NCBI GenBank assembly: GCA_023443725.1
Contig: JAEZTF010000010.1
Coordinates: 29,948 to 93,947 of the forward strand
Reading direction: 5' to 3'
Length of the DNA stretch: 64,000 nucleotides
Origin: Candidatus Parcubacteria bacterium
GTDB taxonomy: Bacteria > Patescibacteriota > Microgenomatia > UBA12405
The position numbers and the translations under genes were made by a program. Numbering within the stretch: the stretch's first letter is position 1; the number at the start of each line of letters is the position of its first letter. The notes under the pieces were generated by a model. The model made no database searches. It worked only from the letters and a program-made list of their open reading frames with translations, and had not been told where the DNA came from. Shown here one piece after another: positions 2,398-60,464 of the stretch.

Positions 2398-3477
2398 TTT
2401 ATTTTTTGGTCTAGAATAAATATTGGTAGCTAAAAAAGTGGTTATAGGAACAGCTAATATTAAACCAATACTACCAATTAAAGTTCGAATAATTTCTTCT
2501 GAAATCATTTCGAAATTGATAATTTCTGAAAATGGATGTGGATTATCAATAAATATTAATAATAATGGTAGTGAAGCACCAGCGTAAGCTAAAATTAAAG
2601 TGTTTACCATGGAAGCAATATGATCTCTACCAACTGACATGGAATGGTTATAAAGATCGATGCTTTTTAAAAATTTTCCAGTCTTCGAAAGTTCTTCAAC
2701 GACAGCTGTTTGAGCAATAGTAATATCATCTAAAACACCTAATGTTCCAAGAATAATTCCAGCCAATAAAATTCCCTTCATATTTAAATATGATTGTTTG
2801 AGAGATAACATACCAGCTTCTTCTGAGGAAAGTCCGGTTAAGTGTCCGATTTTAATAAAAATTGATCCTAAAACTATAGTGATAATAAGAGAAAGAATAG
2901 AGCTTACTATAGCGACAGTAGTTTTTTTGTTAAAGCCGTGAGTTAAATAAAAAGAAAAAGGAATAATGATTAGTGAACCAATAATGGCAATAGAAATAGG
3001 GTTACTGCCGGATGATATTTTTGGTAGGACATAAATAAAAACGATAATAAACGTAAAGGCCATACCTAAAATAGAAGAAACACCTTTCCATTTGGCAATA
3101 AAAATTAAAAAAACTAGGAAAATTATAGATAATAAAACTAAACTGTCAGTACGGACAAAATCAGTAATTGAATAGTGGTCTACCCCGTCAATATTGTCAT
3201 TAGTAACAATAACTCGATCATTACGGTTGTATTTTATAATATTGGCCAAAGCTTGGTCACCATTTTCAATAATTATTTTTTGATGATTGGAATCTAGCTC
3301 TAGTTCTAATTTTTGATAGAGTTGGTTAACTCCCATGACAGAAATTTGTTTTTCTTCAAGAATATTGGTGATTGTGGCTTTGGTAGATTGAGAATCAATT
3401 GCTTTAATTGATTTTGGTGACATCAAAAAAACCACCAAAAAAAATATAAAGATAAATATTTTTTTGAAAAAAGTCAT
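2389..3477 (-). CDS. YibE/F-like integral membrane protein
   Basis: N-terminal anchor plus an extracytoplasmic domain, then multiple TM helices. The GRDHIASMVNTLILAYAGASLPLLL segment resembles the YibE/F family signature as I recall it. Confidence 0.55.
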   Translation of the reverse strand: MTFFKKIFIFIFFLVVFLMSPKSIKAIDSQSTKATITNILEEKQISVMGVNQLYQKLELELDSNHQKIIIENGDQALANIIKYNRNDRVIVTNDNIDGVDHYSITDFVRTDSLVLLSIIFLVFLIFIAKWKGVSSILGMAFTFIIVFIYVLPKISSGSNPISIAIIGSLIIIPFSFYLTHGFNKKTTVAIVSSILSLIITIVLGSIFIKIGHLTGLSSEEAGMLSLKQSYLNMKGILLAGIILGTLGVLDDITIAQTAVVEELSKTGKFLKSIDLYNHSMSVGRDHIASMVNTLILAYAGASLPLLLIFIDNPHPFSEIINFEMISEEIIRTLIGSIGLILAVPITTFLATNIYSRPKNKLF

Positions 3478-5139: not shown

Positions 5140-5210
5140 GCGGCTATAGTTTAGTGGTAAAATGTGTCCTTCCCAAGGATAAGTCGAGGGTTCAATTCCC
5201 TCTAGCCGCT
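5140..5210 (+). tRNA. tRNA-Gly (anticodon CCC)
   Basis: Manual cloverleaf: acceptor GCGGCTA/TAGCCGC, anticodon loop TT-CCC-AA, T-arm GAGGG-TTCAATT-CCCTC, discriminator T. No encoded CCA. Confidence 0.9.
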
Positions 5211-5225
5211 CTCTTTTTATATTAG

Positions 5226-5324: not shown

Positions 5325-6038
5325 ATGGCTGAATTTAAAAGATCAAGGTTGGCTCGAAGAAATGACGAGACAGTAACAAAAAAGACTGTCTTTATGGGTT
5401 TTTTGACAATTTTGTCAATCATATTAGTAATATTATTTGGCTTACCATTGTTAGTAAAGTTTTCTGTTTTTTTGGGAAATACTAAGAAAGTAGACAGTTC
5501 TGATAAAAAACTAGTTCCACCATTGGCACCTAGATTGGTAATACCTTATGAAGCAACTAATAGTGCTAATATTTCTGTTAATGGATTTACTGAGGTTGGA
5601 GTTGAAGTAGAATTATTTAAAAATGAAGTTTCAATAGGTAAGACACAGGTTACAGAAAGTGGAGATTTTGTTTTTAAAAATATTCCTTTAGATGATGGAG
5701 ATAATAGTTTTAGTGCCTTAGCAATAAGTAAAGAGGCTGGTTCTAGTGACGGTTCAGTTCCTATAGTTGTATCTTTTGATAATAAAGCTCCCGATTTAAA
5801 AATAACTAATCCGGCTGAATCTGAATTGACAATAGATTATGCTGATTTTGATGTTATTGGAGAGTCGGAGAAAGATACTAGTGTAACGATTAATGGAAAA
5901 GTAGCCGTAGTTGATGATGATGGTAAGTTTAAATTAAAGTTTCAACTCAATATGGGTAAAAATGAATTAGAAGTAATAAGTAGAGATTTGGCAGGAAATG
6001 AAACTAAAAAAAAGATAACAATTACTTACAGTCTTTAA
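5325..6038 (+). CDS. Membrane-anchored extracytoplasmic protein with beta-rich (Ig-like) repeats
   Basis: N-terminal TM helix followed by beta-strand-pattern repeats (SVNGFTEVGVEVELFKN..., TINGKVAVVDDDGKF...). The fold assignment is inference. Confidence 0.5.
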   Translation: MAEFKRSRLARRNDETVTKKTVFMGFLTILSIILVILFGLPLLVKFSVFLGNTKKVDSSDKKLVPPLAPRLVIPYEATNSANISVNGFTEVGVEVELFKNEVSIGKTQVTESGDFVFKNIPLDDGDNSFSALAISKEAGSSDGSVPIVVSFDNKAPDLKITNPAESELTIDYADFDVIGESEKDTSVTINGKVAVVDDDGKFKLKFQLNMGKNELEVISRDLAGNETKKKITITYSL

Positions 6039-8731: not shown

Positions 8732-11146
8732 GTGATTATAAATACTTTATTGAAGAAATTTTATTTTTTATTTTTCTTAATTTTACCATTCGTTTTACCA
8801 TATGACGTTTTAGCAGAAAATTATTTAGTCGATAATTTTGATTCTTTGGGAAACTGGGTTTTTATTCCTAGTAGTACATCTGATTTTAATAGTTGGTCTG
8901 TGTCAAATAATAAATTGATAGGTAATATAAACAGAAAAGGTAGTTCACTTTTAATATCAAAAATGAATAACTTTGGTGAAAATTTAGATTTCAGTTTTAA
9001 TGGGACAAATATTAATGGTATTGATCAAGAAGTTTTATTTGGTGTAAAAGACTTAAACAATTACTATGTTTTGAATACTAGATTTGAAGAACCTTCATGG
9101 TCTCAGGATAAAAATATTAATCAAGTTGTTTTATGGAAATATTATTCTGGTACTTATCATGAAATGAAAAGGATTGAACTTAAAAATTTTGGTATTAATT
9201 TAGAGAAAAATGTCGCTTATGAATTTTCAATAATCATTAGAAATAATGAGATTGTAGTTTATATTAACGATATTTTAATATTTTCCATTGTTGATCAAAA
9301 TTTATTTTATGGCGGTGTTGGTTTTTGGAATTGGGGAGGTGATTATAGTAAAACAGTTAATTATTATTCTGATTTAAGAATTAATTCATTTTTGACTCCA
9401 ACTCCTACCCCTATTCCAACCAACACTCCGTTCCCTGATCCTACATTAACACCAACATTGGCACCGACTATAACACCTACTCCAACACCAACTTTTACAC
9501 CTACACCAACGCCTACTCCGATACCAATTCCTAAAAAAAAGATTTTTATATTACCAGGATTAGGGGCGAGCTGGAACCCGGAGGCAATTGTTTACAATAA
9601 AAATGTTAGTAATAATGATTGGAAAATGACTCCTTTTGTTAATAATTATGATGGCTTGATTGAGAATTTAGAAAAAAATGGTTTAGTAAGAAATCAAGAT
9701 TTCTTTGTTTGGAATTATGACTGGAGAAGATCAATTAGTGAAAGTGAAAATAATTTTAATATTTTTCTAGAAAGTAAAAATATAAGTAATAATGATGAAA
9801 TTTATTTAATAGGTCATAGTCTTGGTGGTGTTGTGGCCAGAATATGGGGACAAGAACATTCAAATGATCAAAGATTAAAAAATATAATTACTTTAGGTTC
9901 TCCTCATTTAGGTTCTTTGGACGTATATACTGTTTGGAATGGTGGCAAAGTGGCTAATTCAAAAGGATTAAGTTCGGTAATTTTTCAAATTTTATTAAAC
10001 TTACAAAATAAAGGTTTTATTACTGATCTAGATAAATTAAGAGCTTATGCCCCAGTGGTTAAAGACTTATTGCCTACTTATGATAATTATGTTTCTAGAA
10101 ATGGTATTTTATTAAAACAAAATCAATTGGAAACAAAAAATAATTTTTTAATAAATAAAAATAATCAAGTTAGTAAAATATCAGATAAATTGTTTTTATC
10201 GACTGGTGTTGGATTTTCAACTCCAAATATAATTAAATTAATCAACAGGTCGGTTTTTGATAAAACTTTTGGTTTATGGCCAGATGGAAAATTTGTGGGT
10301 TATGGTTATGAAAATGGTGATGGTACTGTTTTAAAAAATAGTGCTAGTTTTGGTTCAACTGAATTGACTGAATTAAACTCTGATCATGGTGAAATTGTAA
10401 ACAACTCTTTGACATTCATAATGTCAAAACTTGGTTTAGAGAGTAAGAAAGTTGATTTTATTTATAATGATAATTTTGCTAATAGTTTGATTGTTTTTGT
10501 TGGTTCACCAGCGACTGTGTCTTTAAAATGTGAAAACGATATTTTAAATGAAGTTGATGGTTTTGTAGTTATAAATAATAAAAATTATAAAGATTGTAGT
10601 TTAAATCTTAATCCCATTGATAATGGGACTGTTCATTTGGTAGTTGGAAATACTAATAATAACGATTGGAATTATATTGAGAAAAAAGTCTCATTAAGTA
10701 ATAAAGAGAAAGTAATTATTAATTTTTCTGATGGATCGATAAAAATTGATAAGTTAAATAAAGATTTTTTAATCTCTTGGATAAAATCTGACTTGCAACA
10801 AATTAAACTAGATAGTGCTATTAAATATTTAGAAAAAGGAAATTTAAACCAAGTGGTAAAGATGGTATTTGTTTATAGATGGAAAACAAAAGAAATGATT
10901 GTTAGTCAAAGAATTTTAAATAATTTGTTTATTTTAGGATCGATAAATAAATCAAACAAGAAAAATATAAATTATAAGTGGATATATATAAATAAAGATT
11001 ATTTAAGTAAAAGAATAAAAAATAATCGTTACTCTGCTTATAGTTTTGATAAATTAAATAAATTTATTGAATACAAAAAATATCCGGATGAAGAAATGGC
11101 TAGATCTTTTTTTGATGGATATTTAATGGAGGCTTTAGGAAATTAA
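8732..11146 (+). CDS. Secreted multidomain protein: jelly-roll/lectin-like N-domain, Thr/Pro linker, LCAT/PGAP1-like alpha/beta-hydrolase (lipase/acyltransferase), C-terminal region of unknown function
   Basis: Signal peptide. TP-rich linker encoded at 9395..9532. WNYDWRRS and the YLIGHSLGG (GxSxG) nucleophile elbow. The N-domain assignment is inference. Confidence 0.65.
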   Translation: MIINTLLKKFYFLFFLILPFVLPYDVLAENYLVDNFDSLGNWVFIPSSTSDFNSWSVSNNKLIGNINRKGSSLLISKMNNFGENLDFSFNGTNINGIDQEVLFGVKDLNNYYVLNTRFEEPSWSQDKNINQVVLWKYYSGTYHEMKRIELKNFGINLEKNVAYEFSIIIRNNEIVVYINDILIFSIVDQNLFYGGVGFWNWGGDYSKTVNYYSDLRINSFLTPTPTPIPTNTPFPDPTLTPTLAPTITPTPTPTFTPTPTPTPIPIPKKKIFILPGLGASWNPEAIVYNKNVSNNDWKMTPFVNNYDGLIENLEKNGLVRNQDFFVWNYDWRRSISESENNFNIFLESKNISNNDEIYLIGHSLGGVVARIWGQEHSNDQRLKNIITLGSPHLGSLDVYTVWNGGKVANSKGLSSVIFQILLNLQNKGFITDLDKLRAYAPVVKDLLPTYDNYVSRNGILLKQNQLETKNNFLINKNNQVSKISDKLFLSTGVGFSTPNIIKLINRSVFDKTFGLWPDGKFVGYGYENGDGTVLKNSASFGSTELTELNSDHGEIVNNSLTFIMSKLGLESKKVDFIYNDNFANSLIVFVGSPATVSLKCENDILNEVDGFVVINNKNYKDCSLNLNPIDNGTVHLVVGNTNNNDWNYIEKKVSLSNKEKVIINFSDGSIKIDKLNKDFLISWIKSDLQQIKLDSAIKYLEKGNLNQVVKMVFVYRWKTKEMIVSQRILNNLFILGSINKSNKKNINYKWIYINKDYLSKRIKNNRYSAYSFDKLNKFIEYKKYPDEEMARSFFDGYLMEALGN

Positions 11147-14444: not shown

Positions 14445-14696
14445 TTAAGCTTTGATGACAGAAACAAAACTTTTGCCTAGTTTTTTGAAGAATTTGACAA
14501 TTCCTGGTTTGATAGCGTAGATTGTATAATCTTTGCCTGTTTTTGTGCCAGGGCCACCTCGAAAACTAGAACCGACTTGTCGAACAATAATTTGACCAAC
14601 ATCTATTTTCTGGCCACCAAATTTTTTAACTCCTCGCCTTTGCCCAGGACGATTGGCTTTTTGATTTGTTTTACCTTGTGTTTTTTTATGTGACAT
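14445..14696 (-). CDS. rpmA: 50S ribosomal protein L27
   Basis: MSHKKTQGKTNQ...GQIIVRQVGSSFRGGPG pattern. Confidence 0.95.
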   Translation of the reverse strand: MSHKKTQGKTNQKANRPGQRRGVKKFGGQKIDVGQIIVRQVGSSFRGGPGTKTGKDYTIYAIKPGIVKFFKKLGKSFVSVIKA

Positions 14697-16059: not shown

Positions 16060-18867
16060 TTAGTTTATTTTTTCAATTTTGAGGGAATCGGATTGTTTAA
16101 TGCTTTGGCCTAATGTTTTGGAAAGGATTTCTTTTTCAAATTGGCTAGGCCAATTTGGGGCAAAAATTATGATTTTGTCTTTTAAATCCAAGTTGGCTTC
16201 TTTTCGAAGACTTTGAATTGAACGAATTAAATCTCTAGATTCTCCTTCTGCTTTTAGTTCTGGTGTGATGTTTGTGTCTAACAAAACAGATAAATTGTCG
16301 GATGATTTAACAATTTCTATAGTTTTTACATTAATTTCATTTTTTATAATTTCTATTAATTTTTCAGATAAATCTAATTTTTGATTAGTAGAAATAGTTA
16401 GTTTAGACAAAGGTTGACGAGTGCTAATATTTTGAGTTTTTCGAATCATATTCCCCTGCTCACAAATTTGTTGAACTAAAATCATATCATTAGCTAATTT
16501 TTCATTGAATTGGTCAACATTTGGATAATTTTCCAAATGAATGGATTCTGATTTGGTAGAATCAATATTAACAACTAAATTTTGCCAAAGAGTTTCAGTA
16601 ATAAAAGGAATGATTGGAGCGACGGCTAGACTAAATTTAACCAAAACTTGCCAAAGAGTTTGTAAAGCTTGTTGGTCACCTGTGGCAAATCGATCGCGTG
16701 ATTGACGGATATACCAACGAGAAAGATCGTTAATAAAAGGTTCAATTAATCTAGTAGCATTGGGAAGATTATATTCTGTTAAATTTTTTTCTAGATTAGA
16801 AATAAAATTATTAGTTTGATTTTCGATCCATTGGTCAAGAACATTATCAGAATTTTGTGTTTCTAAGTTTGGAGAAAAATCAAAAAGATTAGCGTAAGTG
16901 ATGAAATACTTATACGAATTCCAAAGTGGTAATAATATATTTTTGACTTGATTGTCGAATTCTTTTTCATCTAGATTAATATTTTCTCCAACCATAATGA
17001 CACTACTCATAAGATAAAGTCGCATAGCGTCGCCACCATATTTTTGAAGAACCATTTTTGGATCTGGATAATTTTTGAAAAGTTTACTCATTTTTCGACC
17101 ATCATTCCCCATCATGGTACCGGTGACAACACAATTCTTGAAACTTTCTGATTGAAATAATGTGTTGGATAAAACATGAAGAGTGTAAAACCAACCACGG
17201 GTTTGACCAATATATTCGACTATATAATCGGCAGGAAAGCTTTTTTCAAAAAATTCTTTATTCTCAAATGGATAATGCACTTGAGCATAAGGCATAGCCC
17301 CTGATTCAAACCAACAATCTAAAACTTCAGGAACGCGGTGGGCTTTTTTCCCACATTTATCACAAGTGACGGTAACTTCATCAATATCTGGTTTATGAAG
17401 ATTAGTGATTTTTTGTCCCGATCTTTTCTCCAATTCAGCAATACTAGATGGAACGAACCTTTCACCACATTCACATTCCCAAATTGGAATTGGTGAAGCC
17501 CAAAAACGAGATCGAGATAAACACCAATCTGGTGCTGTTTCTATCCCCTGTCCAAAACGACCATCTTTTATATGATCTGGTACCCAATTAATATTTTGGT
17601 TGGTAGATTTCATTTTATCTTTGACTGATTGAACATTGAGATACCAAGCACTTTGAGATTTATAGATTAATGGAGTACCACAACGATAACAAAATGGGTA
17701 ACTGTGAGTAATCAAATCTTGTTTAAAGAGTAAATTGCGACTTTTTAAATCCTCAATAACTAGTGGATCAGCTTTTTTAACAAAAAGATTAGCAAATGGT
17801 TTGACTTGATCAATAATTTTACCTTCATCATCAACATGGTTAATTAAAGATAATTTATTTTCTTTTCCAAAATTAGAATCATCTTCACCAAAGGCAGGAG
17901 CAATATGAACAACGCCGGTACCATCAGTCATAGAAACAAAATCAGCATGATAGATTTTATAATCGTTTTGTCCAACTTCAAAAAAGTTATAAAGTGGTTT
18001 GTAAGAAAGTCCAATCAATTCTTGACCTTTAAAATCTCTAATAAGCTCATATGGTTGATTATCAACCACTACTTCAATTCTGGCTTTTGCTAAAATTAAA
18101 TTTTGCTCATTTAATTTGATTTCAGAATAAATTTCATCTTTATTAACAGCAAGAGCAAGGTTGGCGGGAAGAGTCCAAGGAGTAGTTGTCCAGGCTAAAA
18201 CATAAGCATCACGATCTTTTAATTTAAACTTAATGGAAATAGCTGGATCTTCAACATCTTTATAGGAATTATCCATAGCAATTTCAAAATTTGAAAGTGG
18301 GGTGGAACATCGAGGACAATATAAAGAAATTCGGTTACCTTTATAGATTAATCCCTTTTTATAAATTTCTGAAAATACCCACATGACAGATTCCATGTAT
18401 GGTAAATCCATGGTTTTATAGGCATTTTTTAGATCTACCCAACGACCAACATGATCAATATACCAAGGCCATTCTTGAGAAACATTTTGAACATAATCAT
18501 AACAAGCATCAATATATTTTTTGATACCAATTGATTCAATATCTTTTTTATTTTTTAAACCAAGTTGTTCTTCAACTTTATTTTCTGCTGGAAGTCCATG
18601 ACAATCCCAACCCCAAACACGACGAACCCTTTTACCTTTCATAGTCCAAAATCTTGGAACGACGTCTTTGGCAATACTAGAAAGCAAATGTCCATGATGA
18701 GGCATGCCGGTAATGAATGGAGGACCATCATAAAAACTATATGCATTTTCTTCTGAACGAGATTCGACTGATTTTTCAAAAATCTTTTTATCTTGCCAAA
18801 ATTTAATTATTTCTTCTTCAAGAGAAGGAAAAGTTATGTTTTGAGGAACTGATTTAAATTTTGGCAT
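16060..18867 (-). CDS. ileS: Isoleucyl-tRNA synthetase
   Basis: PPFITGMPHHGHLL (HIGH), KMSKL (KMSKS), a CP1 editing region and 935-aa length. Confidence 0.95.
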   Translation of the reverse strand: MPKFKSVPQNITFPSLEEEIIKFWQDKKIFEKSVESRSEENAYSFYDGPPFITGMPHHGHLLSSIAKDVVPRFWTMKGKRVRRVWGWDCHGLPAENKVEEQLGLKNKKDIESIGIKKYIDACYDYVQNVSQEWPWYIDHVGRWVDLKNAYKTMDLPYMESVMWVFSEIYKKGLIYKGNRISLYCPRCSTPLSNFEIAMDNSYKDVEDPAISIKFKLKDRDAYVLAWTTTPWTLPANLALAVNKDEIYSEIKLNEQNLILAKARIEVVVDNQPYELIRDFKGQELIGLSYKPLYNFFEVGQNDYKIYHADFVSMTDGTGVVHIAPAFGEDDSNFGKENKLSLINHVDDEGKIIDQVKPFANLFVKKADPLVIEDLKSRNLLFKQDLITHSYPFCYRCGTPLIYKSQSAWYLNVQSVKDKMKSTNQNINWVPDHIKDGRFGQGIETAPDWCLSRSRFWASPIPIWECECGERFVPSSIAELEKRSGQKITNLHKPDIDEVTVTCDKCGKKAHRVPEVLDCWFESGAMPYAQVHYPFENKEFFEKSFPADYIVEYIGQTRGWFYTLHVLSNTLFQSESFKNCVVTGTMMGNDGRKMSKLFKNYPDPKMVLQKYGGDAMRLYLMSSVIMVGENINLDEKEFDNQVKNILLPLWNSYKYFITYANLFDFSPNLETQNSDNVLDQWIENQTNNFISNLEKNLTEYNLPNATRLIEPFINDLSRWYIRQSRDRFATGDQQALQTLWQVLVKFSLAVAPIIPFITETLWQNLVVNIDSTKSESIHLENYPNVDQFNEKLANDMILVQQICEQGNMIRKTQNISTRQPLSKLTISTNQKLDLSEKLIEIIKNEINVKTIEIVKSSDNLSVLLDTNITPELKAEGESRDLIRSIQSLRKEANLDLKDKIIIFAPNWPSQFEKEILSKTLGQSIKQSDSLKIEKIN

Positions 18868-18880
18868 ATAGTGTATTTTA

Positions 18881-18908
18881 CAAAAAAATCCTTCAAATTG
18901 AAGGATTT
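18881..18908 (-). terminator. Intrinsic-terminator-like hairpin (AAATCCTTCAA/TTGAAGGATTT + T7) 13 nt upstream of the ileS ATG
   Basis: Read on the minus strand: a long stem followed by TTTTTTTG. It could end read-through from the region upstream or act as a leader attenuator. Confidence 0.55.
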
Positions 18909-18913
18909 TGAAT

Positions 18914-18942
18914 GCCGATTATCCCCTATTTGGGGAATCGGC
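18914..18942. repeat. Nested GC-clamped hairpin GCCGATT-ATCCCC-TATTT-GGGGA-AATCGGC
   Basis: The inner module ATCCCCTATTTGGGGA resembles the hairpin at 74..94. Confidence 0.6.
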
Positions 18943-19016
18943 TATTTAATAATAATTATTTTAGATGATTTAGTCATCGAATAGGTTTATTATACACTAT
19001 TTGGATTTAAAGTATA

Positions 19017-36216: not shown

Positions 36217-37536
36217 TTATTTATTTAACTGCTTTTCCATCCAACTGTCAATTTTATCGATAGAAACTCTAATTTGTTTCATAGTGTCACGATCACGAAT
36301 TGAAACAGTGTTATCTTCTAATGTTTGATAATCAACTACAGTACACCATGGTGTTCCTATTTCATCTTGACGACGATATTTTTTCCCAATATTACTACTA
36401 TCATCCCAATCAATAGAATATTTTTGACTTAATTGTTTATAGAGCTTTTCGGCTTTGTCAATTAATTCTGGTTTATTGGCAGCTAGAGGGAAAATAGCCA
36501 TCTTATAGGCAGAAACTTTAGGGTTCACTTTTAAAACAGTTCTAACATCTCCTGACTCAGTTTTCTCTTCTTGGTAAGCATCGAGAAGCATAAAAAAGAA
36601 ACTACGATCGACTCCTCCAGAGGTTTCAGTAATCCATGGGATATATCTCTCATGTGTAGTCGGATCGATATAAGATAGGTCTTGTCCACTAAACTTAGAA
36701 TGTTGAGTTAAATCATAATCTGATCGCCAATGTATTCCTTCCATTTCGGCCCATCCCCAGGGAGCATTATATTCAATATCAAAAGCTTTTTTAGCATAGA
36801 AAGCCAATTCATCCTTGCCATGTTCTCTAAATCTTAAATTATCTTGATTGTTAAATAATGATTTATACCAATTGATACGAGTTTCTTTCCAATATTCAAA
36901 CCATTTATCCATTTCATCTGGATGAACAAAATATTGAATATCCCATTGTTCGAATTCTCGAGTACGATAAAGGAAATTTTTAGGAGTAATTTCATTTCTG
37001 AAAGCTTTTCCGATTTGAGCGATACCAAAAGGTACTTTAACTCGAGTAGAGTCGACAATATTTTTAAAATCTAAATAAATAGTTTGGCAAGCTTCTCCTC
37101 GTAAATAGGCATGAAGTTTTTCACCTTCTATAACTCCAATTTCAGTTTCAAATAATATATTGTATTTTCGTCCCTCGGTAAATTGTCCACCACATTCTGG
37201 ACATTTAGACGGATCATCAAGTAAATCAGGTCGAAAACGTTTGTGACATGATTTACATTCAACCATGATATCGGCAAAATTTTTGACATGTCCTGAAGCT
37301 TCCCAGACTCGAGGGTGAGTAATAATTGATCCGTCGATCATAACAACATCTTGTCGAGAGGTAACATTATCGTGAATCCAAAGATCTTTCCAATTTTTTT
37401 TCATGAGAGAACCGATTGGTCCGTAATCATAAAAACCTTGAACACCGCCATAAATTTCAGAATTTTGAAAAATTATTCCTCTGCGTTTACAGAGACTGAC
37501 GATTTTGCTGACAAGATCATTTTGATTGTCTGACAT
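36217..37536 (-). CDS. glyQS: Glycyl-tRNA synthetase, alpha2 (GlyQS) type
   Basis: RRGIIFQNSEIYGGVQGFYDYGPIG, class II motifs and a CxxC...CPECG insertion. The ATG at 37536 with an AGGAG SD is preferred over the track's TTG at 37554. Confidence 0.9.
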   Translation of the reverse strand: MSDNQNDLVSKIVSLCKRRGIIFQNSEIYGGVQGFYDYGPIGSLMKKNWKDLWIHDNVTSRQDVVMIDGSIITHPRVWEASGHVKNFADIMVECKSCHKRFRPDLLDDPSKCPECGGQFTEGRKYNILFETEIGVIEGEKLHAYLRGEACQTIYLDFKNIVDSTRVKVPFGIAQIGKAFRNEITPKNFLYRTREFEQWDIQYFVHPDEMDKWFEYWKETRINWYKSLFNNQDNLRFREHGKDELAFYAKKAFDIEYNAPWGWAEMEGIHWRSDYDLTQHSKFSGQDLSYIDPTTHERYIPWITETSGGVDRSFFFMLLDAYQEEKTESGDVRTVLKVNPKVSAYKMAIFPLAANKPELIDKAEKLYKQLSQKYSIDWDDSSNIGKKYRRQDEIGTPWCTVVDYQTLEDNTVSIRDRDTMKQIRVSIDKIDSWMEKQLNK

Positions 37537-37680
37537 AGTTCTCCTAAAAAACAATTAATATTTTTTAGGGATCCCGATAAATCAGGACGGTTCCACCCTA
37601 TTTGATAAATTATTTTTTCCAGTTAATTTATCCTCTTTTATTTTTCGGCTCGAGATTTGCCAAATCTGTCATTGCCTTGA
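37537..37680 (-). promoter_or_regulatory. T-box riboswitch-like leader (Gly, GGC specifier) with truncated Stem I and an SD-sequestering helix
   Basis: Minus strand: K-turn hairpin GGC-AAU-GA-C-AGAU[UUGGCAA]AUCU-C-GA-GCC (37676..37647); Stem III (37632..37604); AGGG-UGGAACC-GUCCUGA-UUUA-UCGGGAU-CCCU antiterminator-type fold (37599..37567); CCUAAAAAA-N9-UUUUUUAGG hairpin overlapping the SD (37569..37543). Confidence 0.7.
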
Positions 37681-37686
37681 TGTTGA

Positions 37687-37715
37687 AGTTTATCTTGTTT
37701 TAAGAAAACTGTCAA
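37687..37715 (-). promoter_or_regulatory. Putative promoter TTGACA-17 nt-TAAACT for the glyQS leader
   Basis: The consensus -35 overlaps the stop codon of the upstream GT-C gene. Ideal 17-nt spacer. Confidence 0.55.
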
Positions 37716-59198: not shown

Positions 59199-59206
59199 TT
59201 TTTAGT

Positions 59207-59307
59207 TTGTCGAGAGAGTCTTAAAAAAGACTAGCAACCGAGCCTCAAAGGGGTCACGGTGCAATTCCCTACTTGGGAGGACAAGCCTTTATAAATTTAA
59301 ATAAAGG
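59207..59307 (+). promoter_or_regulatory. SAM-I-clan riboswitch-like leader (minimal P2/P4 variant) with an SD-sequestering hairpin
   Basis: P1 UUGUC/GACAA; J1/2 GAGAG; P2 AGUCUU-AAAAA-AGACU; AGCAACC...GGUGC (P3) followed by AAUUCC (as in the SAM-I J3/4); mini P4 CCC-UACUU-GGG; then CCUUUAU-N8-AUAAAGG covering the AAGGA SD. Sits upstream of metK. Confidence 0.6.
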
Positions 59308-59313
59308 AAAAAT

Positions 59314-60432
59314 ATGAATTATTCCCTATTTACGTCAGAATCAGTTTGTGCTGGTCATCCCGATAAAATTTGTGACCAAATTTCAGATACTGTTTTAGAT
59401 ACTGCTTTAGAAATTGATAGAAATTCAAGAGTTGCTTTAGAAACTTTAGTGACCACTAATAAAGTAATAATGGCAGGCGAAGTGACTTGTAGTAAAAAAT
59501 TAGACTATGGACAAATCGCAAAACAAGTAATTAAAGATTTAGGTTATACTAATCCTCTTTTAGGTTTTGATACAAATGCAGACATAGAAGTATTGGTTCA
59601 TCAACAATCAAAAGATATTGCAATTGGAGCCGATAATGACGGTGCAGGTGATCAAGGAATGATGTTTGGTTATGCTTGTAATGAAACACCACAATTGATG
59701 CCATTATCAATTATGTTGTCACAAGAATTATGCAAAAAAATGGATAAACTGCAGTTTGAAAGATTAAATTATTTAAGACCAGATGGTAAGGCAGAAGTGA
59801 CAATTAAATATAATCAAGGAAAACCAGTGGAAATAGTAAAAGTGGTTTTGGCTAAACCAATGGATCTAATAGTTGAAGATACTCAAGCAAAAAAAGATTT
59901 GTATGAATTGGCTGTGTTGCCAATTTTGGAAAAATATAAACTTAATAAAGTAAGCGTAGAAAATGTAATTTTAAATGGTACAGGTAGATGGGAAATTGGT
60001 GGACCAGCAACAGATACTGGAGTAACTGGTCGAAAAATTGTAGTCGATACTTATGGTGGTATGGGACGAATTGGTGGAGGATGTTTTTCAGGTAAAGATC
60101 CAACAAAAGTAGATAGAAGTGCAGCTTATGCTGCTAGATTTATTGCCAAAAATGTAGTGGCTGCAGGATTGGCTGATCGTTGTGAAGTCCAATTGGCCTA
60201 TGTAATTGGTGTTAGAGATCCAATTTCAAAAGCAATTGAAACTTTTGGAACAAACAAAAAAGAAATAAATAAAATTGAAGAATTTGCTTGGAATTTAATG
60301 AATTTATCGGTTAAAGGAATAATTGATAAATTTGATTTAAAAAGACCAATTTACAAAAATACAGCTAGATATGGTCATTTTGGATATGATGAATATCCTT
60401 GGGAACAAATCAAAACCCCTCTGTCTCGATAA
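59314..60432 (+). CDS. metK: S-adenosylmethionine synthetase
   Basis: GHPDKICDQISD, GAGDQGMMFGYA, GGGCFSGKDPTKVDRSAAY. Confidence 0.95.
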   Translation: MNYSLFTSESVCAGHPDKICDQISDTVLDTALEIDRNSRVALETLVTTNKVIMAGEVTCSKKLDYGQIAKQVIKDLGYTNPLLGFDTNADIEVLVHQQSKDIAIGADNDGAGDQGMMFGYACNETPQLMPLSIMLSQELCKKMDKLQFERLNYLRPDGKAEVTIKYNQGKPVEIVKVVLAKPMDLIVEDTQAKKDLYELAVLPILEKYKLNKVSVENVILNGTGRWEIGGPATDTGVTGRKIVVDTYGGMGRIGGGCFSGKDPTKVDRSAAYAARFIAKNVVAAGLADRCEVQLAYVIGVRDPISKAIETFGTNKKEINKIEEFAWNLMNLSVKGIIDKFDLKRPIYKNTARYGHFGYDEYPWEQIKTPLSR

Positions 60433-60464
60433 ATCGAGACATCTCCCCTTGAAAAAGGGAGAAG
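60412..60464. repeat. Repeat element copy C (related to the second half of element A), overlapping the last 6 codons and stop of metK
   Basis: AAAACCCCTCTGTCT[CGATAAATCGAG]ACATCTCCCCTTGAAAAAGGGAG versus the coding-strand reading of A, AAAAACCCCTCTGTCT[TTCAG]ACATCTCTCCTTAAAAAAGGGAG. Confidence 0.75.

Follow-up and report, generated by a model that had tools for sequence, protein, structure and literature searches.

A candidate miniature translational T-box ahead of glyQS in a Shapirobacteria-like genome

Introduction

How little of a T-box does an mRNA leader need in order to recognise one particular tRNA? The question is raised by the leader of glyQS, the gene for glycyl-tRNA synthetase (GlyRS), in a 64,000-nucleotide stretch of contig JAEZTF010000010.1 (Candidatus Parcubacteria bacterium), the whole of which is called the window here. 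T-boxes are a model for the recognition of one folded RNA by another. Two ways of holding the tRNA body have been published, either a long Stem I that docks on the tRNA elbow or Stem II with the Stem IIA/B pseudoknot (PMC7583486, PMC11297988). The glyQS leader belongs to a conserved, covarying family with neither module, which raises the question of the minimum required for specific tRNA sensing. We regard it as probably a miniature, tRNA-Gly-responsive translational T-box specific for tRNA-Gly(GCC). Most likely, the leader would sense uncharged tRNA-Gly(GCC) and open the ribosome-binding site. Comparison of aligned leaders establishes the anatomy, its conservation, the constant specifier and bulge, and the predicted competing helices; it establishes equally that a distal elbow platform, a specifier internal loop, Stem II and the IIA/B pseudoknot are missing.

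Structure of the glyQS leader

All leader elements are read from the minus strand and are bounded by the stop codon that ends the upstream open reading frame (37712) and by the ATG of glyQS (37536). Each element listed in an earlier sequence-only reading of this DNA, including the TTGACA-17-TAAACT promoter, was recovered where that reading had placed it (Table 1). Stem I is reduced to a K-turn hairpin with a glycine codon in its apical loop. It is followed by a single-stranded linker, Stem III, an antisequestrator (helices A1 and A2 flanking the T-box bulge) and a sequestrator hairpin over the Shine-Dalgarno (SD) sequence. Transcription would be expected to start a few nucleotides ahead of Stem I; in the orthologous leaders, read directly, a -10-like box lies 6–14 nt 5' of Stem I. 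The fold of the 182-nt leader has z=-3.3 relative to shuffled sequences. In its minimum-energy structure Stem III, A2 and the SD hairpin are formed and A1 is not.

The Rfam T-box model RF00230 matches positions 37564..37681 over its full length (model positions 1–219) with 34.2 bits (E=3.8e-6 in a local search, E=6.9e-4 when the whole 64-kb window was searched on both strands with all 4227 families). The match emerged in E-value mode. At Rfam gathering thresholds the whole window gave no T-box, only three tRNAs and a SAM-I/IV riboswitch. In the alignment, the K-turn base, Stem III and AAAUAGGGUGGAACCG fall on their counterparts in the model, in agreement with the K-turn geometry and the A1, UGGNACC bulge and A2 layout that had been read from the sequence. 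Stem I is aligned to model positions 1–18 and 95–105, with 76 positions of the distal part replaced by the 7-nt loop, and 40 positions of the Stem II region are reduced to 1 nt. The elbow platform of distal Stem I (AG bulge and distal loop, forming interdigitated T-loops), already described as missing in the sequence-only reading, falls within the first of these deletions. There is no space for it in the leader, because the -10 box is located about 10 nt ahead of Stem I. The leader thus has the T-box bulge, specifier, K-turn, Stem III and competing helix of RF00230 and departs from the family in its score and in the distal platform. Proposed as a check on the T-box assignment, the search bears it out in the extent of the alignment and falls short of it in the score.

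AGGGTGGNACCG has a single exact occurrence in the window, and neither the window nor the 587 kb of related loci yielded any further T-box. The suspicion that A2 is a module of a local repeat family did not hold, as no other copy is present at up to three mismatches and A2 covaries in orthologues. The hairpin at 60424..60441, after metK, was compared with A2 base by base and rejected as evidence of a repeat origin, since it differs at 6 of 18 positions.

Conservation and covariation

The closest relatives of the encoded GlyRS are the glycine--tRNA ligases of Ca. Shapirobacteria. The protein is 77–87% identical to proteins labelled Ca. Shapirobacteria, Woesebacteria or Microgenomates, and judged by this gene the window (~30% G+C) is from a Ca. 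Shapirobacteria-like genome. Many related genomes (L001, L004-L007, L009, L012 and others) are labelled 'uncultured Gammaproteobacteria bacterium'; their GlyRS is 84–94% identical and the gene neighbourhood is the same, and these labels look wrong. One genome per species was scanned, giving 80 loci with GlyRS identities of 61–94%. The motif GTGGNACC lies 60–85 nt ahead of the start codon in 20 of them. The same leader stands directly 5' of glyQS in these 20 related genomes and in two metagenome contigs (L097 and L131). The window and the 20 related loci make up the set of 21 leaders used below.

A covariance model (115 positions, 26 pairs, five helices) was built from the window and seven close leaders. 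Searched against the window and the 80 loci (587 kb, both strands), it gave exactly 21 full-length matches, all adjoining the 5' end of glyQS, and none elsewhere. In the model alignment of the 21 leaders, standard pairs fill 96.5% of cells (68.5% in shuffles), and compensatory, two-sided changes are found in 25 of the 26 modelled pairs. The covariation score is 0.759, as compared to 0.259 for shuffled alignments and at most 0.151 when the partners are slid by 1–3 columns. RNAalifold on a plain MAFFT alignment independently recovered Stem III, A1 and A2, with compensatory changes in 16 of 17 pairs. Stem I and the sequestrator were missed there because their length varies; this variation was handled by the covariance model and by folding each sequence.

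All five helices covary, as had been predicted for orthologous leaders if the T-box were real. The two helices of Stem I are paired in 92.9% (helix 1) and 96.3% (helix 2) of cases, with double changes in all eight pairs. Pairing is kept in diverged C-stems (GGC/GCC, CAAC/GUUG, CUGC/GCAG, CUUGC/GUAAG) and upper stems (AGAU/AUCU, CGAA/UUCG, GGGG/CCCC, CCAAA/UUUGG) alike. Stem III, proposed as a 9-bp helix and present as such in the window, keeps 6 bp among relatives; these are 100% paired, all with double changes. A1 is paired in 97.1% and A2 in 95.6% of cases. The linker between Stem I and Stem III is 13–20 nt long and unstructured across the family, with a mean purine fraction of 0.68 (0.49 for the whole strand). 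Two A's of the Stem III 3' flank are invariant in all 21 leaders; such purines dock on the tRNA 3'-end helix in known T-boxes (TBDB; PMC11297988).

The family tolerates further reduction. The K-turn is kept in 17 of the 21 leaders and is missing from L022, L024, L028 and L055, and likewise from the metagenome contig L131, which has a plain GGC hairpin. In published work the K-turn is missing from 29% of known T-boxes. Stem III is absent from L028 (2892..2977), L030 (2873..2957) and L078 (2872..2960), where only a purine-rich linker remains; L028 is reduced to a plain GGC hairpin, linker and antisequestrator. L026 and L046 have an additional hairpin inserted in A2. The apical loop of Stem III carries the motif A-N-Y-U-G-G-A-(A/U) in eight otherwise diverged leaders (window 37613..37623 on the minus strand, L001, L004, L005, L019, L039, L041 and L097). 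It contains the same UGGA as the T-box bulge, is also tRNA D-loop-like, and is absent where Stem III is short or missing.

These data bear on the idea that the leader is left over from a canonical glyQS T-box, in decay and without function. The large deletions relative to RF00230 and the patchy presence (20 of 80 relatives) would be explained by decay. Compensatory changes in all helices and functional sites that are invariant over GlyRS identities of 63–94% would not, and we consider a remnant very improbable.

Expression platform

The sequence-only reading had placed the switch at the level of translation, with a 9-bp hairpin that shares a strand of A1 and buries part of the SD, and with no U-tract. 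All three features are present. The pairing CCUAAAAAA/UUUUUUAGG covers AGG of AGGAG, which pairs with the A1 3' strand at the foot of an AU-rich hairpin, and no terminator-like site was found in the leader (37537..37711). For each of the 21 leaders, the part running from the A1 3' strand up to the start codon was folded separately. At least three of the five nucleotides of the A1 3' strand pair downstream in 19 of them. The sequestrator stops 6 nt short of the AUG in the window and 0–8 nt short of it in 17 leaders; in L019, L041, L055 and L078 pairing extends into the start codon itself. SD-like purines sit on the 3' strand of the hairpin, which has a mean z=-2.5 against shuffles and is followed by no U-tract in any of the 21 leaders. 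Such a hairpin, with the A1 3' strand in common, positioned over the SD and/or start codon and lacking a U-tract, fits translational control.

The A1 3' strand occurs as CCCUA, CUCUG and CCUCU, and its A1 5' and sequestrator partners change to match (GGGAU/GGAU, GAGAC/GAGAU and GGAGU/GAGA, respectively). Such three-way covariation is characteristic of a pair of helices that would be mutually exclusive. The ligand-free minimum-energy fold of all 21 full leaders has no A1 pairs and is in the sequestered state; forcing A1 costs 0.1–10.7 kcal/mol, typically 3–6 kcal/mol. Such calculated energetics are expected for an ON switch, in which A1 would be stabilised by four base pairs and stacking with the tRNA 3' end.

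Control might instead be exerted by premature termination, intrinsic or Rho-dependent, or through mRNA stability. The majority of known T-boxes are transcriptional, and two distant mini T-boxes (L107 and L149, see below) precede U-tracts. We nevertheless regard control at such a level as improbable here, given the missing terminator-like site in the window, the lack of a U-tract in all 21 leaders, and a hairpin that takes in the SD-like purines and either extends to within 0–8 nt of the start codon or overlaps it.

Specifier, T-box bulge and tRNA partner

The two predicted contact sites for tRNA are nearly constant in the family. The apical-loop GGC is invariant in 21 of 21 leaders ahead of the GlyRS gene, and the bulge is UGGAACC in 20 of 21, with UGGGACC in the remaining one. 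UGGA of the bulge is complementary to a UCCA (U73-CCA) 3' end. The base 3' of GGC is A in 15 leaders, including the window, and U in six (L019, L022, L024, L028, L030 and L041). The 7-nt anticodon-loop-like loop with a 3' purine, described from the window sequence, is correct for the window and is not general.

Only tRNA-Gly(CCC), tRNA-Thr, tRNA-Val and two tRNA-Glu were identified by ARAGORN in the window and 60 related loci. The window tRNA-Gly does have U73, as the sequence-only reading had said, with no encoded CCA. It is not the cognate of the GGC specifier because its anticodon is CCC, and it is not the ligand. Its U73 supports the argument from the discriminator base. In the long open reading frames of the window, GGU and GGC make up 61% of glycine codons and GGG 6%, and a GCC isoacceptor is therefore expected; a genome that retains tRNA-Gly(CCC) would almost certainly have one.

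In E. coli the thrS operator is a mimic of the tRNA anticodon arm that controls translation. By analogy, the Stem I hairpin could be an operator bound by GlyRS and the T-box likeness a relic. The 7-nt loop on a short stem in the window does resemble an anticodon arm, but the loop carries the codon GGC and not the anticodon GCC, and for this reason we reject the tRNA-mimic reading as highly implausible. In addition, the loop length varies from 5 to 8 nt, and the operator model has no need of the conserved UGGAACC bulge, of A1/A2 or of the three-way sequestrator covariation.

Proposed mechanism

The following model is proposed for the leader as a translational T-box. With no ligand, the sequestrator hairpin would form and block the ribosome-binding site. 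The anticodon of uncharged tRNA-Gly(GCC) would pair with GGC in the apical loop, forming a loop-loop contact with three G-C pairs, and the free 3' UCCA of the tRNA would pair with UGGA of the bulge. A1 would thereby be stabilised and CCU withdrawn from the sequestrator; the SD would be freed and GlyRS made. By analogy with other T-boxes, glycyl-tRNA would be rejected sterically.

Whether the RNA acts alone is a separate matter. We see an even chance that it is a self-sufficient minimal T-box, with about 85–120 nt from Stem I to A1 and only two tRNA contacts; that these two would be the loop-loop codon-anticodon helix and the NCCA-bulge helix is equally balanced. One may speculate that the all-G-C codon-anticodon helix, the strongest possible with its three G-C pairs, offsets the lost elbow and Stem II contacts. 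Presentation in a hairpin loop and perhaps the purine-rich linker might also compensate. UGGCA is formally complementary to U33–A37 of the GCC anticodon loop, which could strengthen the contact further; in canonical T-boxes, according to published work, the purine that follows the specifier is stacked and does not pair.

A protein or other contact may also compensate for the missing elements. In this alternative the leader is a T-box relative that is not self-sufficient, and a trans factor supplies the contacts of the Stem I platform or Stem II. Such a factor might be a K-turn-binding L7Ae/YbxF-type protein or some other protein, or the contacts might come from a second RNA interaction, such as one through YUGGA in the Stem III loop. 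The K-turn is retained in most leaders, K-turn-binding proteins are common among Gram-positive bacteria and a truncated Stem I needs Stem II, both according to published work, and eight Stem III loops share a conserved motif. However, four leaders have no K-turn, three have no Stem III and many lack the loop motif, whereas the GGC loop and T-box bulge are always kept; no candidate factor has been identified. We consider dependence on such a factor rather unlikely, if the most serious of the alternatives discussed here.

Several observations weigh against a tRNA-Gly(GCC)-specific translational T-box. There is no experimental precedent for a T-box that has neither the elbow platform nor Stem II. 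The RF00230 score of 34.2 bits is below the curated gathering score of 93. No tRNA-Gly(GCC) gene was found by ARAGORN in the window or the 60 related loci. The apical loop varies in size (5–8 nt), as does the base after GGC. The overlap between sequestrator and A1 is only 3–5 nt, and the competition is weak in L044, L055 and L078. About 60 of 80 related genomes have no such leader, and the element is therefore dispensable. Finally, the covariation counts are taken from a model-fitted alignment, which is biased toward the structure; a real signal is indicated by the slid controls and by RNAalifold, whose result was obtained independently.

If the proposed T-box is self-sufficient, it would represent an irreducible core of tRNA sensing by RNA and would overturn the rule by which Stem II is indispensable once Stem I is truncated. 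The leader may be the simplest natural T-box design so far, and would serve as a very small natural scaffold, both in structural studies and for engineering switches that respond to tRNA. Curated Rfam thresholds overlook elements reduced to this degree. Almost nothing is known of gene regulation in Patescibacteria (PMC11665869). The sequence-only reading had claimed that no such element was described from genomes of this kind. In the full-text literature searched, which includes few subscription papers, we found no paper that ties T-boxes to the Candidate Phyla Radiation or Patescibacteria, and no description of such an element from these groups, from Saccharibacteria or from metagenomes; within that literature this is the first T-box linked to Patescibacteria.

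Distribution and mini T-boxes elsewhere

The T-box-bearing loci are patchily spread over GlyRS identities of 63–94%. In 48 of 56 glyQS orthologues without a T-box, a TATAAT-like -10 box lies 5–7 nt ahead of an in-frame ATG. In most of these it is a perfect TATAAT at 5–6 nt; loci with the box (at about 2985..3003 of each) include L002, L008-L013, L015, L018, L020, L021 and L023. This spacing points to a leaderless layout, so that glyQS in this clade would be either leaderless or T-box-controlled. Comparison of the two layouts could help to explain why only some ultrasmall genomes regulate an essential synthetase.

A metagenome scan with AAWTAGGGTGGAACC returned 120 stretches; among the matches listed, most were canonical Firmicute-type terminator T-boxes with a long Stem I or chance matches in coding DNA. 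A K-turn screen of the 120 stretches flagged three (L097, L107 and L149), and L131, which has no K-turn, was spotted by eye. L097 (RF00230 60.4 bits) and L131 are two more Shapirobacteria-like mini T-boxes. L107 and L149 are mini T-boxes upstream of the GlyRS gene in 26%-GC contigs, and the GlyRS of L107 is nearest to those of 'Bacilli bacterium' metagenome-assembled genomes. Both share with the window the K-turn, the short stem, an apical loop with a glycine codon, the absence of Stem II, the T-box bulge and the GlyRS gene. Their apical loops, UUGGAAU and CUUGGAAAA, give a GGA specifier, in contrast to GGC in the window. Downstream of A1, the sequence pairs back to the Stem III region and lengthens A1 into a long hairpin, after which comes a U-run. 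The terminator of L107 and L149 would therefore keep A1/A2 at its tip, unlike canonical T-box terminators, and this platform is probably transcriptional. With these mini T-boxes, the truncated Stem I design is seen in more than one lineage. L149 also contains a second, near-canonical T-box (Table 1).

Other regulatory features of the window

Three further features of the window were noted. The leader of a probable ileS gene (fold z=-6.4) contains three hairpins, the last of which (11 bp, AAAUCCUUCAA/UUGAAGGAUUU) runs into a U-tract about 22 nt ahead of the ATG. No T-box or other Rfam match was found in this leader, which may be an attenuator of an unrecognised kind. The SAM-I/IV riboswitch (42.7 bits; gathering score 41.1) is located directly 5' of metK and slightly overlaps its start. 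A terminator-like hairpin with a T-rich tail lies within glyQS about 40 nt past the start codon, probably by chance.

Table 1. Positions of the leader elements, neighbouring features and distant mini T-boxes. Positions are those of the window, except for L107 and L149, which come from the metagenome scan.
Feature	Position	Strand	Remarks
Promoter	37687..37715	-	-35 TTGACA 37715..37710, 17-nt spacer, -10 TAAACT 37692..37687; 10/12 matches
Truncated Stem I hairpin	37647..37676	-	30 nt; GGC-AAU-GA-C-AGAU-[UUGGCAA]-AUCU-C-GA-GCC
Stem I parts	apical loop 37663..37657	-	C-stem GGC/GCC; 4-bp upper stem AGAU/AUCU; apical loop UUGGCAA
K-turn in Stem I	37670..37669 and 37651..37650	-	tandem G.A/A.G at these positions; bulge AAU
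Specifier	37659..37661	-	GGC (glycine codon) in apical loop, then A37658
Linker	37633..37646	-	GAAAAAUAAAAGAG; purine-rich, single-stranded; no Stem II, no IIA/B pseudoknot
Stem III	37604..37632	-	9 bp, 11-nt loop ACUGGAAAAAA; 6 bp conserved among relatives
Stem III 3' flank	37600..37603	-	AAAU (three purines, then U)
Stem III 3' flank to A1 3' strand	37603..37567	-	AAAU-AGGG-UGGAACC-GUCCUGA-UUUA-UCGGGAU-CCCU; AAAUAGGGUGGAACCG = 37603..37588
Antisequestrator (discriminator core)	37566..37600	-	A1 UAGGG/CCCUA, bulge and A2
A1	37599..37596 with 37570..37567	-	AGGG with CCCU
T-box bulge	37595..37589	-	UGGAACC, 7 nt
A2	37588..37571	-	GUCCUGA-UUUA-UCGGGAU
Sequestrator hairpin	37569..37561 with 37551..37543	-	CCUAAAAAA with UUUUUUAGG; CCU common with A1 3' strand; pairs AGG of SD
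SD-like sequence	37541..37545	-	AGGAG; 4 nt 5' of ATG; 3/5 nt inside sequestrator
glyQS	36217..37536	-	439 aa; class II homodimer-type glycyl-tRNA synthetase; tRNA-synt_2b and HGTP_anticodon domains
Terminator-like hairpin and T-rich tail	37478..37495	-	within glyQS
tRNA-Gly	5140..5211		anticodon CCC
ileS (probable)	16060..18867	-	tRNA-synt_1, Anticodon_1, DUF5915
ileS leader	18868..18995	-	about 120 nt after TATAAT
SAM-I/IV riboswitch	59202..59323	+	
metK	59314..60432		
L107 mini T-box	about 8860..9005	-	
L149 mini T-box	about 5760..5880		
L149 second T-box	14486..14655	+	near-canonical, long Stem I, RF00230 79.2 bits

Comparison with known T-boxes and operators

The nearest counterpart is the Bacillus-type glyQS T-box (RF00230); the structure of the B. 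subtilis glyQS-tRNA complex is PDB 6POM (listed in PMC12990946). Both leaders have a GGC specifier, a K-turn at the base of Stem I and glyQS downstream. Neither has Stem II or IIA/B; in published work the glycine T-boxes form a class without Stem II but with a long Stem I. A single-stranded linker, Stem III with flanking purines and the UGGAACC bulge between A1 and A2 are also common to the two. In the window, however, Stem I stops at the specifier, and the distal part of about 76 nt with its double T-loop platform is gone. The window specifier is presented in a hairpin loop, whereas that of Bacillus lies in an S-turn internal loop, and the expression platform is a hairpin that sequesters the SD/AUG without a U-tract instead of an intrinsic terminator. 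The hosts are Patescibacteria and Firmicutes, respectively.

With the E. coli thrS operator the leader shares a small hairpin beside the ribosome-binding site of a synthetase gene and translational control. The thrS operator mimics an anticodon and binds the synthetase, whereas the window loop shows a codon and is joined to a putative T-box discriminator that would bind the tRNA 3' end.

The third comparison is with the ultrashort translational ileS T-box of Actinobacteria, reportedly described by Sherwood in 2015 and known to us through reviews. Structures are available for M. tuberculosis ileS (PDB 6UFG/6UFH; PMC7583486, PMC11297988, PMC12990946). The TBDB translational model has been applied to Actinobacteria and to class-I matches with a truncated Stem I, and a 2026 review names only the canonical and the ultrashort ileS types. 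The window leader resembles the ultrashort type in its short Stem I, in the absence of the elbow platform and in translational control by an antisequestrator that competes with an SD-sequestering helix. As proposed here, the tRNA would likewise be held by anticodon and NCCA contacts only. The two differ in amino acid (glycine, not isoleucine) and in phylum, and some members of the present family are also without a K-turn or Stem III. The main difference is that ultrashort ileS has Stem II with an S-turn and a IIA/B pseudoknot, and the window leader has neither. In ileS these modules stabilise the codon-anticodon helix, offset the lost elbow contact and are essential with a truncated Stem I (PMC7583486, PMC11297988). 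As glycine T-boxes lack Stem II and ultrashort ileS T-boxes lack the elbow platform, the glyQS family described here combines the two absences.

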